From an uncultured Acidimicrobiales bacterium (lineage in GTDB: Bacteria; Actinomycetota; Geothermincolia; Fen-727; Anoxymicrobiaceae), in contig CAZEJS010000010.1 of the NCBI GenBank assembly GCA_964512645.1, positions 7,022 through 71,021 on the forward strand: 64,000 nt of DNA, given 5' to 3'. Position numbers and translations under genes: made by a program. How positions within the stretch are numbered: the first letter of the stretch is position 1; each line of letters starts with the position of its first letter. Positions 1,650 through 36,532 of this stretch are shown here, in pieces. The notes under the pieces were generated by a model, which was not told the origin of the DNA, made no database searches, and saw only the letters and a program-made list of their open reading frames with translations.

Positions 1650-1727
1650 CGGGACGTGGCGCAGTCAGGTTAGCGCACTGGTCTGGGGGACCAGGGGTCG
1701 CCGGTTCAAATCCGGCCGTCCCGACCA
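1650..1727 (+). tRNA. tRNA-Pro (anticodon GGG) with encoded CCA
   Basis: Manual cloverleaf: acceptor CGGGACG/CGTCCCG; D-stem GCGC/GCGC; anticodon stem CTGGT/ACCAG with loop CTGGGGG (U33, GGG, G37); T-stem GCCGG/CCGGC with loop TTCAAAT; discriminator A, then CCA. Confidence 0.85.
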
Positions 1728-32280: not shown

Positions 32281-33546
32281 TCACCTGCCGACAATCCGCA
32301 AGCTCGACAGGACCAGCCACAGGTCGAGCCCGTACAGGACCGCGACCGCGACCCACGCCACGACGTTGTAGGCACCGCCGTTGACGTGGTCTCCCATTAC
32401 GTCCCTGTCCCTTATGATCTTCAGCATGCAGGTCAGGACCACCGGGAGGAGCAGCCCGTTGATGGCCTGCGATGCCAGCATCACTGTTATGAGGGGAACC
32501 TTCGGCACAAGCACCACCGCCGCACCGCCGGCTATGAACACGGTGTACACGGTGTAGAAATTCGGCGCCTCCGAGATGGTCCGGTCGATACCGTACTCCC
32601 AGCCGAACGCCTCGCAGACGGTGTACGCGGTGGTCAACGGGAGTATGCAGGCGGCGAAGAGGGAGGCGAACAGAAGACCGAAAGCGAACAGGCTGGAAGC
32701 GTAGCGTCCGGCCACCGGCGCCAGCGCACGCGCCGCCTGGTCGGCCGAGGTGATGCTGGTCGCCCCCACCCCGGGCTTGTTGAAGAACGCCGCGGCGCAG
32801 CAGACGACTATCGCGCCAGCCGTTATCGTGAGAAAGACCGCCCCCATCGCGGTGTCGACCCGCTCGTAGGCGAGGTCGGACGCCTTCAAACCCTTGTCCA
32901 CCACCGATGACTGCTGGTAGAACTGCCCCCACGGGGCTATGGTCGTTCCCACTATGGTTATGACCATCAGGATATAAGCAGCGTCGAGCTGCCCGCCCGG
33001 CACGAAAGCGCCCCTTGCCACCTGGCCCCACTCGGGCTTCGCCAGTATCGCGGACACGATGTAAGCGATGTAGACGACGCTGACGAGCAGGAAGACCTTC
33101 TCTACGCGCTTGTAGCTGCCTTTGAGCACCAGGAACCAGACCAGCGCAGCCGACACCGGCACCGCTATCCAGCCGGGCACCCCGAAGACGTGCGCGCTCG
33201 CGGAGATGCCCGCGAAGTTGGAAACGGTGTTGGCGAAGTTGGCCAGTATCATCGCCAGCATTATCAAAGCGGTCAACCTGAAAGAGAACTCTTCTCTTAT
33301 CAGGGCGGCGAGCCCCTTGCCGGTGACGACACCCATCCTCGCGTTCATCTCCTGGACCATGAACAGGAGTATCCCCGCCGGTATCAGAACCCAGAGTATC
33401 TGGTAGCCGTAACGCGCGCCGGCGACGGAGTAGGTGGCGATGCCCCCTGCGTCATTATCGGCGACCATGACGATAATCCCCGGCCCGAGCACCGAGAGCA
33501 GCATGAGCATCTTCTGTTTGTTCATCGCGCCCGCGAGCCGGCTCAC
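32281..33546 (-). CDS. mntH: NRAMP-family divalent metal (Mn2+/Fe2+) transporter
   Basis: GPGIIVMVADNDAGGIATYS...QEMNARMGVVTG motifs; 11 TM profile. Confidence 0.85.
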   Translation of the reverse strand: MSRLAGAMNKQKMLMLLSVLGPGIIVMVADNDAGGIATYSVAGARYGYQILWVLIPAGILLFMVQEMNARMGVVTGKGLAALIREEFSFRLTALIMLAMILANFANTVSNFAGISASAHVFGVPGWIAVPVSAALVWFLVLKGSYKRVEKVFLLVSVVYIAYIVSAILAKPEWGQVARGAFVPGGQLDAAYILMVITIVGTTIAPWGQFYQQSSVVDKGLKASDLAYERVDTAMGAVFLTITAGAIVVCCAAAFFNKPGVGATSITSADQAARALAPVAGRYASSLFAFGLLFASLFAACILPLTTAYTVCEAFGWEYGIDRTISEAPNFYTVYTVFIAGGAAVVLVPKVPLITVMLASQAINGLLLPVVLTCMLKIIRDRDVMGDHVNGGAYNVVAWVAVAVLYGLDLWLVLSSLRIVGR

Positions 33547-33567: not shown

Positions 33568-35370
33568 CTACAGCCAAGCCCCGGCCACCAGCAACCCGAC
33601 AGCCAGAAAGACCACAAGGGACGCTGCCATCACCGAGACACTCACGAGCCTCGCGGGGCCGACGACGGGCCTTGGCCCGGCCCTGCCGAGGATCACCGGT
33701 ACGCCGAAGCCCAGAAGTCCGGCCACGGAAATAGCCGCAAAGAGGGCCAGTGCCCCCGCCAGGGCCTGCCTGCCGATGTCCACCCAGACCAGTGCGGCCG
33801 CGAACCCCAGCGCGCTGACCAGCGCAGCCGCCGCGAAGGTCAGCAGGTACTCCCGGGCAAGCATCCTGGCTATCGCTCCCGGCGCCAGGCGGGACCCACG
33901 CACGTCCCGGACCGCCGCAGCCATGGACCACACGCTCACATCGTGTATCGCCCTCAGCGCGAGCGGCAGGAAATAGACTATCGCCAGCGCCAGCAGGAAC
34001 TCATTCTGGAACGCGTAGAAGAGGGCCATGGCGACGAGGCCGCCCAGAAAGGTCAACATGGTCGCGGCCCACCTGCGGATGTCGAGGGCGTTTCGCACCG
34101 GGGTCCCTTCCTCCTCGAAAGGCACCCCCGAGAGCTGAGCGAAATCCTCCCCCATCTCTTCACGCATCACGTCGATCGCGTCGTCGACCGTCACGATACC
34201 CTTCAATACGTGGTCCTCGTCTACGACGGGCACGGCGAGGAGGTTGTATCGCGTGAGCCGGTTTGCCACGCTCTCCTGGTCTTCGAGCGTCTCCGCCGTA
34301 ATCACGTCCCTCATCATCAGGCTCCCGACGTCCGCGCCGGGACTTGCCCGCAGAAGGTCCCTCAGCGAGAGCACTCCCGACAGGTGCCCTTCGCCGTCGA
34401 CGACGTATACGTAGTAGATGGTCTCGGCTTCGGAACCGACACGCCGAAGGTATTCGATGGTCTCCCCGGCTTTCATGGTCACCGGCACGGCGACGAACTC
34501 CGTGGTCATCCTGCCGCCCGCCGTTTCAGGATCGTAGCCGAGCAGTTCGGATACGATCGAAGACTCATCGATGCCCATGAGTGCCAGAAGGGTCTGGGCC
34601 TTGTCCCTCGGGAGCGAACCCAGGATGTCCGCCGCCTCGTCCGGGGGCATTATCTCCAGCAACTCGGAAAGTCTCTCGTCTTCCAGCGCATCCGCCACGT
34701 CCGAGCGGATGCCGGGCAGAATCCTGGAAAGCACCTCCGCCGCCTTCGCCTCCTCCACCAGAGTGAGGACCTTGTACCGCTGGTCTTCGGGAAGTTGCTC
34801 GATGATGTCAGCCAGGTCGGACGGGTGTACCTCCAGGAACTCCCGGTACGGCACACGGAGCCGGACGTCGTACGGCATAGGACCCATGGGCGAGACGAGG
34901 TTCCAGGGCACGATGCGGTCTTTGAAGACGGTGGCGTTCAAGCGCTTCAGCCGACCGGTCAGCGGCTGCAGGCCAAGCCGTCGGAGCAGCGCCAGCGCTC
35001 CCACGTCGGCGCCGATCACGCGCAGCTCCGGGCCGGACCTGGCGATACGGATGTCGCCGACCCTCACGATCCTGTATCCGTCCATGTCGACTATCTGCTT
35101 GTCCAGCAGGTCTCGGTACAGGAATATGTCGCCGCTCTCGGCGGTGGCTCCATACGGCGGCCTCTCCGCCACTACCCGGTCGGGCTCGACCCTGCTCACC
35201 GCGGACACGGGGAGAAAGAAAGTGCCGCCGCCCTTGTGGGCCCTGGCCATGAAACCTTTTACCCTGGGAAACCTGGCCTCACTCTCGACGACGACATCCG
35301 ACACCCTACCGATGCGCACCCCAGGTTCGTCTTCGATTCTCCTGCCCATCATCGCGCTCAGATACGGCAT
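33568..35370 (-). CDS. mgtE: Magnesium transporter MgtE with an N-terminal PRC-barrel extension
   Basis: MgtE N-domain, CBS pair, C-terminal 5-TM domain, plus about 150 extra N-terminal residues that resemble PRC-barrel domains. Confidence 0.85.
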   Translation of the reverse strand: MPYLSAMMGRRIEDEPGVRIGRVSDVVVESEARFPRVKGFMARAHKGGGTFFLPVSAVSRVEPDRVVAERPPYGATAESGDIFLYRDLLDKQIVDMDGYRIVRVGDIRIARSGPELRVIGADVGALALLRRLGLQPLTGRLKRLNATVFKDRIVPWNLVSPMGPMPYDVRLRVPYREFLEVHPSDLADIIEQLPEDQRYKVLTLVEEAKAAEVLSRILPGIRSDVADALEDERLSELLEIMPPDEAADILGSLPRDKAQTLLALMGIDESSIVSELLGYDPETAGGRMTTEFVAVPVTMKAGETIEYLRRVGSEAETIYYVYVVDGEGHLSGVLSLRDLLRASPGADVGSLMMRDVITAETLEDQESVANRLTRYNLLAVPVVDEDHVLKGIVTVDDAIDVMREEMGEDFAQLSGVPFEEEGTPVRNALDIRRWAATMLTFLGGLVAMALFYAFQNEFLLALAIVYFLPLALRAIHDVSVWSMAAAVRDVRGSRLAPGAIARMLAREYLLTFAAAALVSALGFAAALVWVDIGRQALAGALALFAAISVAGLLGFGVPVILGRAGPRPVVGPARLVSVSVMAASLVVFLAVGLLVAGAWL

Positions 35371-35394
35371 TGGAAGCTCCCGTCAGAAGGCGAC

Positions 35395-35416
35395 AAAAAA
35401 GCCCTCGGAAGAGGGC
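35395..35416 (-). terminator. Intrinsic-terminator hairpin inside the mgtE 5' leader (candidate riboswitch/attenuator expression platform)
   Basis: Minus strand reads GCCCTC-TTCC-GAGGGC-TTTTTT, about 20 nt upstream of the mgtE SD GGGAG/ATG. A candidate -10 TATAAT (plus 35584-35589) lies about 200 nt upstream. Confidence 0.55.
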
Positions 35417-35632
35417 GTCTCGATCACCCGTCCCCGATAGAATCAGCTCAAGGCACGCTCCCCTCCGCGTGATACCGCACGGACCGGAGCAGAGCCCTGT
35501 CAGGTATTGGTTTCTCGGGTCTGTCGCTTTCCATCATCTCAATCCCGCGCCCGCCCCCACCAGGGGAGCACGTCATTTCAACGATTATACAACAAGCCGG
35601 GCGGTGTTTCGGTGGTCGGCGCGAACGGGGTG

Positions 35633-36532
35633 TCATTCGAGGAACATCTGCTGGCCGGTTTCAGGCGAGCCGGGCGCCTCCTGCCCGGAATCCGGCCCTG
35701 CGCGCCTCTCGGCGGAGACTGCCCCTCCCTCGCCGCCTTCCGCCGGCGCACCGGCAGGAGCCTCGCCGCCTTCGCTCACCGTATCCATGTCCGCGTCCTC
35801 CCCGCTCTCCTCCTCGAGGATGTCCAGGCCGGCCGGACGCGGTAGATACCGGGACAGCGCCTCCCTCAGCAGAGCCCCGGTAAACATCTGGGACAGCGAC
35901 ATCAGGTTCTCGAGGTCCTTTATGGCGGCCCTCTTGGTGTTGGGGTCTTTGTGCTGCAAGTGCGGCCGGATGATCTGCTCGATGAACGAAGCCTCTCGTC
36001 CGACGAACTGCGTGTACATCCTCAAGTGCCTGGGCTCTACCCCGTAACGAAAGAACTCCTTGGCGAGGTTGAGTATCTTCATCTCCGACGGAGGGAAGTA
36101 CTTGCCTTCAGGGCCTTCATGCACGGCCACGATGCCGTATTCGACGAGCTCCTTCACCGTCTCCGCGGAAAGTCCGAGCTTTGCGGGAGCAAGGTCCAGC
36201 GACACCGGGACGGCCCCTGCCAGAGACGGTTCGGCGCCCTGTCCGGACATGACAGCAAGTTCGCCCGCGACCGCCTTTCCGCTACGGAGGTCCTGTATCT
36301 TCCGTTTGATAACCGAGAGCGGAAGATACTCCTCACGTTGAAGTCGAAGTATATAGCTGAGTTGCTTGATGTTCGCGCGAGAGTACTTGCGGTATCCGCT
36401 CTGGGTGCGCTCGGGATTGATCAGACCCTCTTTTTCGAGGAAACGAATCTTGCTTATGGTTATGTCCGGGAACTCCTTCTTCAGCAACTCCTGGACTTCG
36501 CCGATGCCGTATTTCTTTTCCTCTGAAGCCAT
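35633..36532 (-). CDS. MerR-family transcriptional regulator with a long C-terminal domain (Rv1828-like)
   Basis: N-terminal MerR HTH (YGIGEVQELL...ISKIRFLEKEGLI..R...GYRKYS), C-terminal effector region and an acidic tail. Confidence 0.8.
   Translation of the reverse strand: MASEEKKYGIGEVQELLKKEFPDITISKIRFLEKEGLINPERTQSGYRKYSRANIKQLSYILRLQREEYLPLSVIKRKIQDLRSGKAVAGELAVMSGQGAEPSLAGAVPVSLDLAPAKLGLSAETVKELVEYGIVAVHEGPEGKYFPPSEMKILNLAKEFFRYGVEPRHLRMYTQFVGREASFIEQIIRPHLQHKDPNTKRAAIKDLENLMSLSQMFTGALLREALSRYLPRPAGLDILEEESGEDADMDTVSEGGEAPAGAPAEGGEGGAVSAERRAGPDSGQEAPGSPETGQQMFLE

Follow-up and report, generated by a model that had tools for sequence, protein, structure and literature searches.

We investigated the leader of mgtE, a gene for a Mg2+ channel homologue, in a 64-kb window (the whole stretch of DNA analysed, 64,000 nucleotides) from an uncultured member of the Actinomycetota (Ca. 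Geothermincolia). On the minus strand the leader lies between an ftsR-like gene and mgtE, which is followed by a gene for a predicted Nramp-related Mg2+ transporter (NRMT); judged by the protein sequences, the leader therefore precedes two Mg2+ importers. Its conserved core reads as a translated-looking upstream open reading frame (uORF) and not as an aptamer, a central feature that an earlier note on this DNA had missed. We regard it as an even call that the leader acts as a ribosome-dependent (leader-peptide) transcription attenuator of the mgtE-NRMT Mg2+-uptake operon. The elements of the leader, in the order in which they would be transcribed, are the following.

35584..35589, minus strand: -10 box TATAAT of the putative leader promoter, found by direct reading and lacking a -35 box.
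35553..35569, minus strand: P1, the 5'-terminal hairpin GCUCCCC-UGGU-GGGGGC, from RNAalifold; per-sequence folds show P1 in most leaders.
35538..35546, minus strand: Shine-Dalgarno (SD) region of the uORF, GGGAUUGAG in the window and GUGAAGGAC in relatives, seen as low-entropy columns before an invariant ATG.
35448..35537, minus strand: the uORF, a putative leader peptide of 29 codons plus TGA with the translation MMESDRPEKPIPDRALLRSVRYHAEGSVP; invariant ATG, open frame in 36 of 36 leaders.
35505..35537, minus strand: codons 1-11 of the uORF, M-x-E/D-S-D-K-S/P-D-K-Q/R-I, conserved at the amino-acid level.
35458..35468, minus strand: R2, a G-rich, SD-like element in the last uORF codons, GCGGAGGGGAG in the window and GGGAGGGG in relatives; candidate antiterminator strand.
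35442..35454, minus strand: D block GCCUUGAGCUGAU, which holds the uORF stop UGA (35450-35448); TTGA plus a second stop in 36 of 36 leaders.
35424..35437, minus strand: E block UCGGGGACGGGUGA, consensus CGGGAACGGGUGA, a non-coding but conserved second G-rich strand, from the alignment.
35395..35416, minus strand: intrinsic terminator GCCCUC-UUCC-GAGGGC plus U6, from a terminator scan and kept in 43 of 43 loci (the pattern that retrieved the metagenome members required it); T5 below denotes its 5' arm with the loop.
35371..35394, minus strand: post-terminator spacer with a conserved GUCGCC and the mgtE SD GGGAG (35381-35377); the GC after the T-run is invariant.

Direct reading of the minus strand recovered the elements that the earlier note had described. 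The note placed the TATAAT about 215 nucleotides (nt) before the mgtE ATG; with the box at 35589-35584 and the ATG at 35370, the distance is 219 nt. The leader does end in a terminator, the SD GGGAG and the ATG. The hairpin GCCCTCTTCCGAGGGC occupies 35416-35401 and is followed by T6 at 35400-35395; hairpin and U-run together read as GCCCUCUUCCGAGGGC plus U6 (35416-35395). Taken alone, these elements are statistically unremarkable: a consensus scan returned one terminator-like site in 1 kb where 0.4 is expected, and a sigma-70 scan of the leader region called no full promoter because the -35 box is missing. We nevertheless judged them to be real because the -10 box, the leader and the terminator are found again, in the same position, in 43 related loci. 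Across these loci the leader of about 200 nt is conserved as 37 distinct sequences in Geothermincolia/Anoxymicrobiaceae-like Actinomycetota, the MgtE homologues coming from metagenome-assembled genomes (MAGs) of Ca. Geothermincolia/Anoxymicrobiaceae and of unclassified Actinomycetota. Fifteen genome loci, with MgtE proteins at 44-73% identity, align over the whole length of the roughly 220 nt upstream of the gene. A metagenome search with a pattern made of the stop block and the terminator, the latter required, retrieved 106 stretches, 28 of which were true members and the remainder unrelated terminators. The gene order ftsR-like, leader, mgtE holds in all true members. NRMT follows mgtE in 15 of the 28 metagenome members; among the other 13, six contigs end too early to judge (L036, L046, L056, L061, L062, L073), five stop less than 1 kb past the mgtE match (L068, L072, L074, L086, L134), and only L031 and L114 extend at least 2 kb beyond mgtE with no NRMT match. 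A profile search with nhmmer found exactly one copy of the leader per locus; the 64-kb window, like the other fetched loci, has no second one.

Two of the metagenome members deserve separate mention. One 3.6-kb contig (L056, Ga0116185_1024815) carries a leader identical to that of the window and flanking proteins that are 99.6-100% identical, and by these matches it appears to be the same organism or strain sampled elsewhere. Another (L046, contig SDBT01327840.1) has a deletion of about 35 nt relative to its close relative L120, in which the SD, the ATG and six initial codons of the uORF are lost, whereas R2, D and E are intact and so is the terminator. This is either a natural variant that has lost its ORF or an artefact of assembly. 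The ORF analyses that follow therefore use 36 of the 37 distinct leaders, with L046 left out for its deletion.

Within the set of 36, about 28 leaders have TATAAT at the -10 position, and most relatives have a TG 4-5 nt upstream of the box. Five leaders of the L006-type group have only a TAnAAT-like hexamer, a few bases off the TATAAT position in the alignment, and no -10-like box was found in the stretch examined in L012, L120 and L016. Both hairpins show compensatory changes. We read the pair types of the stems from anchored segments, as MAFFT shifts the two length classes of the terminator loop by one column. In the terminator stem, a U-A pair is replaced by C-G in L009, L012, L046 and L120, with U-G intermediates in L014, L072, L086 and L109; the hairpin has an energy of -7.3 kcal/mol in the window and a mean of -7.7 kcal/mol across leaders. 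P1 reads GCUUCC...GGAAGC in relatives, and the window carries two compensatory changes (U-A to C-G) relative to this consensus, while L061 regains an A-U pair at a site where L031 has an A.C mismatch.

The best-conserved stretch of the leader lies between P1 and the terminator region and reads GUGAAGGAC-CAG-AUG-GNC-GAN-AGY-GAY-AAA-YCN-GAC-AAA-CNA-AUA, with the variable columns falling mostly at every third position after the AUG. Translation from the invariant AUG, which an SD precedes by 5-6 nt in relatives, gives an ORF of 25-31 codons in all 36 leaders. This frame is free of stops in 36 of 36, compared with 3 of 36 for each of the other frames and with an open probability of 0.29 in shuffled sequences. 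The leaders differ in length between the ATG and the stop block (74, 75, 80, 83, 86, 87 or 89 nt), and these distances are in frame with the first TGA except for 75 and 87, which are in frame with the second conserved stop 5 nt further on; no indel class lands in the frame that would miss both stops. Since the ATG is invariant and preceded by an SD, the frame is open throughout, the indel classes keep it, and codons 2-11 show the substitution pattern described below, we judged the uORF to be translated-looking, and we infer that it is translated. The ORF list that accompanied the sequence contains a 62-residue ORF (35448-35636, minus strand), which is the 29-codon uORF extended in frame to an upstream ATG; that ATG overlaps the end of the ftsR-like gene, and the conserved start is the ATG at 35537.

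We counted differences by codon position between close leaders of equal length. In codons 2-11 the differences at first, second and third positions numbered 2, 6 and 17, with 14 synonymous and 11 non-synonymous codon changes, and at codon 7 (YCN) all four third bases were seen. In codons 12-22 the corresponding counts were 35, 33 and 36, with 15 synonymous and 58 non-synonymous changes, and from codon 23 onward they were 17, 5 and 10. Because the third-position bias is present in codons 2-11 and absent in codons 12-22, the first 11 residues are under selection at the amino-acid level. The middle of the uORF needs only to stay open and roughly keep its length, and the 3' end is constrained as RNA. 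The conserved N-terminal part carries acidic residues at positions 3, 5 and 8, and the peptide matched no family in Pfam or NCBIfam at E<=10.

A further constraint is visible at codons 6 and 9-11 (35505-35522, minus strand in the window), where A-ending minority codons are kept: AAA and never AAG, CAA or CGA and never CAG or CGG, and AUA. In the neighbouring genes AAG makes up 74-80% and CAG 80-95% of the respective codons. This A-rich stretch points to a probable constraint at the nucleotide level on top of coding. Pausing at a rare AUA codon was considered and rejected, as AUA accounts for 36-39% of isoleucine codons. We also dropped a hand-drawn pairing of the block after P1 with the GCCUUGA block (AAGG with CCUU, CAAAUC with GAUUUG) because variants break the pairs without compensation; the block is read as SD plus codons.

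Selection on the N-terminal 11 residues could also be taken to mean that the product of the uORF is a small protein with a function of its own, such as a transporter-associated peptide, behind which the hairpin would be a leaky terminator with no sensing. Metal transporters of other bacteria do have small companion proteins such as MgtS, MgtR and MntS, which lends the idea some general plausibility. However, only 11 residues are kept and the rest evolves without codon bias, the C-terminus changes reading frame among relatives, and the peptide is hydrophilic and belongs to no known family. Moreover, the mgtE ATG follows the U-run after only 24 nt, which leaves no space for a promoter of its own, and mgtE must therefore be transcribed through the terminator. 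A small protein would also leave the complementarities among R2, E and T5 unexplained, and we consider this explanation quite unlikely.

Toward the end of the uORF, R2 is kept as nucleotides even where the frame differs, so that some peptides end in MGGVRP before the stop and others in GRGFALI. R2 is complementary to the terminator 5' arm and loop (CUCUUCC) and can form a helix of 7-8 pairs (GGGAGGG with CUCUUCC). The consensus fold from RNAalifold consists of P1 and R2:T5 only, and R2:T5 was preferred over the terminator hairpin both for the whole leader and again when the 3' half was folded. The predicted R2:T5 duplex has an energy of -10.5 kcal/mol in the window and a mean of -11.8 kcal/mol, with a z-score of about -2 against shuffles. 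These models indicate an antiterminator pairing that is mutually exclusive with the terminator.

Directly downstream of R2, the D block has the consensus GCC-UUGA-NN-URR. It contains TTGA (ATGA in L016) in all 36 leaders, followed by a second stop that is TGA, TAA or TAG and never TGG; the uORF ends at this second stop in six leaders. UGA is the only codon found at the first stop, and a U precedes it throughout (A in L016) even though the last sense codon is mostly four-fold degenerate. At the same place, UUG-AGC-UGA (35443-35451, minus strand in the window) forms a two-codon mini-ORF that overlaps the uORF UGA, starts with UUG (AUG in L016), is closed by a stop (UGA, UAA or UAG) in 36 of 36 leaders and sits 8-9 nt after the SD-like R2. 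From its layout, the mini-ORF may be a termination-reinitiation or ribosome-parking element; as an extra layer, it might park or re-initiate the ribosome and so set which G-rich strand is exposed. The second G-rich strand, E, can pair with the terminator 5' arm and loop and, less strongly, with D: the E:T5 duplex has a mean energy of -9.1 kcal/mol and a z-score of -0.9, the D:E duplex -7.4 kcal/mol and -0.3. A D:E anti-antiterminator was set aside as not significant overall, the pairing being significant only in the L006/L007-type subgroup.

The spacer after the terminator holds one more conserved motif, (G/A)U(C/U)GCC, which directly follows the U-run (35389-35394, minus strand in the window) with its GC invariant. 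The GCC(C) or UCGCC in it could pair with the mgtE SD region, as GCCC/GGGC-type hairpins in relatives, or alternatively with the terminator 3' arm or the 3' half of the E block. Together, the peculiar D block, the A-ending codons, E and UCGCC suggest that there may be further regulatory layers.

The leader thus contains a conserved short ORF with its own SD and start, an intrinsic terminator 26-35 nt after the uORF stop and before mgtE, and, by computation, an antiterminator strand within reach of a translating ribosome. In the attenuator that we propose, transcription would start a few bases after the TATAAT and P1 would form, and a ribosome would load at the SD and translate the 29-codon uORF (35537-35448). 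The last codons carry GGAGGGG (R2), which is complementary to the terminator 5' arm and loop (CCCUCUUCC). If R2 were naked at the time when polymerase has made the terminator 5' arm, R2 would pair with it, no terminator would form, and transcription would read through into mgtE. A ribosome at the end of the ORF, whether still translating or already at the stop, which lies 8-9 nt past R2, would instead bury R2, allowing the terminator to form and transcription to stop at the U-run. Expression would then be inversely coupled to the efficiency with which ribosomes pass through the uORF, and this would set the probable sign of the switch. The conserved acidic N-terminus (M-x-E-S-D-K-S/P-D-K) could make this passage conditional and, by analogy with MgtL, passage might fail more often at low Mg2+. 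Mg2+ as the signal is suggested by the MgtE and NRMT cargo and by the M-box control of distant homologues, and its sensing through the nascent peptide by the same MgtL analogy.

We then modelled the effect of the ribosome by a thermodynamic scan in which its footprint was placed along the ORF and the remaining RNA was folded. For footprints that cover R2, with the P site about 5-10 codons short of the stop, the predicted probability of the terminator was near 1. With R2 free and the upstream RNA masked, R2:T5 replaced the terminator, the probability of which fell to about 0 in most leaders including that of the window.

Several results weigh against this attenuator or its sign. The ribosome-position scan is heterogeneous and gives no uniform answer on the sign: without a ribosome, termination is predicted (P>=0.9) for about 20 of the 36 leaders and read-through for about 8, and when a ribosome occupies the first stop, E stays exposed and E:T5 replaces the terminator in several models, which is the opposite sign. 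T5 is nearly invariant, so that R2:T5 rests on conserved complementarity without true covariation, and a trp-like 1:2 pairing of the ORF middle with R2 was no better than shuffles (mean z -0.5). Runs of identical regulatory codons were absent from all 29 distinct peptides. Enrichment of aspartate, glutamate or proline (D/E/P) in residues 2-11 is modest: most peptides have three such residues among the ten, and only 8 of the 29 have 4-5 (two in 4 peptides, three in 17, four in 7, and five in one, that of the window). Finally, all carriers are uncultured MAGs.

The behaviour of E raises the alternative that the same device works with the opposite sign, uORF translation promoting read-through. 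A ribosome at the Pro-UGA stop would cover D and free E (CGGGAACGGGUGA), which would pair with the terminator 5' arm and loop; with no ribosome, D:E would form and the terminator would win kinetically. In agreement with this, placing the A site on the first stop gave E:T5 in the minimum free energy fold and a terminator probability near 0 for the window, L002, L003 and others, and several ribosome-free leaders are predicted to terminate. E is conserved in spite of being non-coding and is complementary to T5 (GGAA with UUCC plus GGG with CCC), and the first stop is always UGA, preceded by proline in 17 of the 29 distinct peptides, a slow-termination context. Nevertheless, D:E is no better than shuffled controls, E:T5 has neither the stability nor the specificity of R2:T5 (z -0.9 vs -2), and E is partly under the ribosome in leaders with short spacers or when termination occurs at the second stop. 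The physiology would also be odd for Mg2+ importers, and mgtL and corL, the precedents, work the other way round (PMC11552253). We therefore hold the opposite sign to be unlikely, if still worth more weight than a small protein.

The earlier note had proposed that this leader is under M-box-type (ykoK) riboswitch control, perhaps in diverged form, or else is a different attenuator. The architecture on which this was based, a long conserved leader of Mg2+ transport genes with a terminator platform (35416-35395) before the SD, is present, but the M-box itself is not. Rfam 15 at gathering thresholds (44 bits for the M-box model RF00380) returned only a tRNA gene in the whole 64-kb window (1650-1724, plus strand). 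Neither RF00380 nor RF00080, the two models that had been named for this region, matched 35300-35700 at gathering score or at E<=10, and the permissive search of these 401 nt gave two chance matches only, to a plant miRNA and an archaeal snoRNA; a scan of 19 related loci gave no match. For RF00080, the yybP-ykoY Mn2+ riboswitch, the downstream Nramp gene that could have suggested it is moreover an NRMT and not MntH. We considered the null result to be meaningful because the same M-box model gave scores of 143 bits in L028 (2782-2949) and 132 bits in L030 (2313-2476), in both cases upstream of a distant homologue of the same PRC-MgtE gene (36-37% identity). One of these loci comes from a MAG labelled Slackia and the other from a Chloroflexota MAG; the M-box in L030 lies about 525 nt before the matched gene start.

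Structure prediction gave the same answer. The three-helix aptamer of the M-box is absent from the RNAalifold consensus, the z-score of the whole-leader fold against shuffles is only -1.65, and excess structure is absent from the variable ORF middle (mean z +0.29); on these grounds we saw no sign of an aptamer, and a pause or aptamer hairpin in the ORF middle was rejected on the latter value. A strongly diverged M-box or yybP-ykoY riboswitch that the covariance models missed would have in its favour only the genomic context, namely a terminator-containing mgtE leader together with an Nramp-family gene. Against it stand the empty searches, the absence of the core (GUUAGGUGAGGCU...) on reading, the scores of 132-143 bits that the model reaches in comparable high-GC MAG loci, and the ORF that occupies the leader. 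By the sequence and structure models, the leader is not an M-box and the diverged form is already refuted as far as such models go, leaving it next to no probability. What stands is the fallback of the earlier note, a different attenuator with no RF00380 match. Of the two features that the note had looked for in such a leader, a covariance-model match is absent and an antiterminator that excludes the terminator is present, as GGGAGGGG pairs with CUCUUCC.

A further alternative is a new class of metal-sensing riboswitch, for Mg2+ or another ion. The RNA itself would then bind the ligand and the uORF would be incidental or auxiliary, as was reportedly once argued for the Salmonella mgtA leader. 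Such a class could use the terminator/antiterminator pair as its expression platform, at the position where distant homologues have the M-box, and it would account for nucleotide constraints beyond coding (the A-ending minority codons 6 and 9-11, the E block and the GCC after the T-run). The core between P1 and R2 is, however, fully explained by an SD, an ATG and codons with third-position wobble, the middle of about 35 nt is unconstrained in sequence and shows no excess structure, and there is neither a multi-stem consensus fold nor a covarying junction architecture. Given also the folding z-score of -1.65 and an ORF that is open in 36 of 36 leaders, we find a new riboswitch class improbable, on a par with the small protein.

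We examined the genes around the leader for their bearing on its cargo.

33568..35370, minus strand: regulated gene 1, MgtE Mg2+ channel homologue of 600 residues, with Pfam PRC, MgtE_N and CBS domains.
32281..33546, minus strand: regulated gene 2, Nramp-related Mg2+ transporter (NRMT type), from its PDB match and binding-site signature.
35633-36532, minus strand: upstream gene, FtsR-type MerR-family regulator, from the FtsR equivalog (196 bits against a cutoff of 150).

The 600-residue protein scores 233.7 bits with the NCBIfam equivalog TIGR00400 (mgtE), barely above the cutoff of 232.75, and its residues 176-595 align to the full Thermus thermophilus MgtE including the membrane domain (PDB 2yvx). 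It has an extra N-terminal region of about 170 residues with a PRC-barrel, which brings it to about 600 residues compared with about 450 for canonical MgtE; the Pfam model of the MgtE membrane domain misses E<=0.001, although the PDB and TIGR00400 alignments cover that region. The second gene had been taken for mntH in the earlier note. Its best PDB match is instead EleNRMT (7QIA) at 375 bits, compared with about 100 bits for MntH structures, and it scores far under the NCBIfam MntH cutoff. In its binding site the motifs D-A-G-G and T-T-I-A-P-W replace the canonical Nramp DPGN and AxxMPH, which matches the signature that defines NRMTs: Asn to Gly, Ala to Thr, Met to Ala and His to Trp (PMC8806188). 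The upstream MerR-family gene was rejected as a metal regulator since it is an FtsR equivalog, a cell-division regulator, and its synteny with the leader is therefore probably plain gene order. This gene always lies directly upstream of the leader and, at 68-88% identity, is better conserved than mgtE; its product has a long C-terminal tail of low-complexity acidic/Gly/Pro sequence, the last residues of which (...MF(P/L)E) are conserved.

More distant MgtE homologues at about 40% identity (a Solincola-like group) have short leaders unrelated to that of the window. In L017-L027, conserved promoter-like boxes of their own (TTGACGCC...TACAAT or GCTATAGAATTG) lie about 60-100 nt before the gene start at about 3001, with neither an upstream ORF nor a terminator, a third regulatory arrangement for the same gene family.

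Among described systems, the closest in logic are the enterobacterial leaders in which efficient translation of the mgtL and corL uORFs at high Mg2+ represses mgtA and corA (PMC11552253). Peptides with an N-terminus rich in D/E/P abort translation at low Mg2+ (PMC11552253; 10.1101/2021.02.02.429294); the N-terminal EPDP of MgtL causes such Mg2+-sensitive abortive translation by intrinsic ribosome destabilisation (IRD), and a published screen for IRD used more than 3 D/E/P in a 10-residue window (10.1101/2021.02.02.429294). As in MgtL/CorL (mgtA, corA) and in mgtM/mgtP (mgtCBR), the leader of a Mg2+ transporter gene contains a short ORF overlapping alternative structures that decide termination (PMC11552253, PMC3641672, 10.1101/2021.02.02.429294), and as in MgtL/CorL the conserved part of the peptide is N-terminal and acidic or proline-containing. 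The differences are nonetheless considerable. There is no sequence similarity to MgtL (MEPDPTPLP... compared with the consensus MxESDKSDKxI here), and the uORF has 25-31 codons where MgtL has 17. Termination would use an intrinsic hairpin with a U-run and not Rho, and the cargo is mgtE plus NRMT in an actinobacterial host (Ca. Geothermincolia) and not mgtA or corA. D/E/P enrichment is moderate here, and the presumed Mg2+ dependence is read from the cargo.

The leader also shares with the classical attenuators (trpL, hisL, pheL, ilvL and the mycobacterial poly-Cys short ORFs) an SD, a short ORF, an intrinsic terminator and a mutually exclusive pairing upstream of it. One of the strands of this pairing is located within the ORF or adjacent to it, and ribosome position selects the fold, as is predicted here. 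Unlike them, it has no tandem codons for one amino acid and conserves the N-terminal peptide instead; the 1:2 anti-antiterminator is unsupported, and there are two G-rich candidate strands, R2 and E. At its 3' end the uORF resembles tnaC, the SD-plus-UGA site of prfB (RF2) and minimal start-stop uORFs: the SD-like GGGAGGGG stands 8-9 nt before an invariant UGA, many peptides end in Pro-UGA, and a UUG/AUG-NNN-stop mini-ORF overlaps the stop. Termination in tna is Rho-dependent, whereas it would be intrinsic here. With the M-box (RF00380, ykoK leader) the element shares its position, the mgtE/NRMT cargo and a terminator platform; unlike the M-box it has no covariance-model match, core sequence or three-helix aptamer, and a coding ORF fills the space. 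A literature search on mgtE with leader-peptide attenuation found nothing comparable. Since there is no peptide homology, the terminator is intrinsic, cargo and phylum differ and no codon run is present, the device belongs to no described family.

Genes for Mg2+ uptake are a textbook case of RNA-based control, by the M-box in Firmicutes and by the mgtL and corL leaders in enterobacteria. Because the same gene family stands under a true M-box elsewhere (L028, L030), the leader described here looks like a functional replacement of the M-box that controls this family in other lineages. We propose, tentatively and with more doubt than for the attenuator as such, that it represents convergent translation-based Mg2+ sensing in Actinomycetota: an acidic nascent peptide would make the ribosome the sensor, through abortive or arrested elongation at low Mg2+, and GGGAGGGG would wire this sensor to an intrinsic terminator in place of the M-box of neighbouring lineages. 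Two annotations are corrected in any case, in that the supposed mntH is an NRMT-type Mg2+ transporter by its sequence and the conserved intergenic region holds an unannotated small ORF. Should the peptide turn out to respond to Mg2+, the leader, at about 200 nt, would also be a compact part for trial in heterologous hosts. For the biology of Mg2+ uptake, one actinobacterial lineage would have solved the problem of its control differently, with an unrelated leader peptide and an intrinsic terminator, and if the N-terminal peptide proves to be Mg2+-sensitive, this would be a second, independent case of the ribosome as a Mg2+ sensor.

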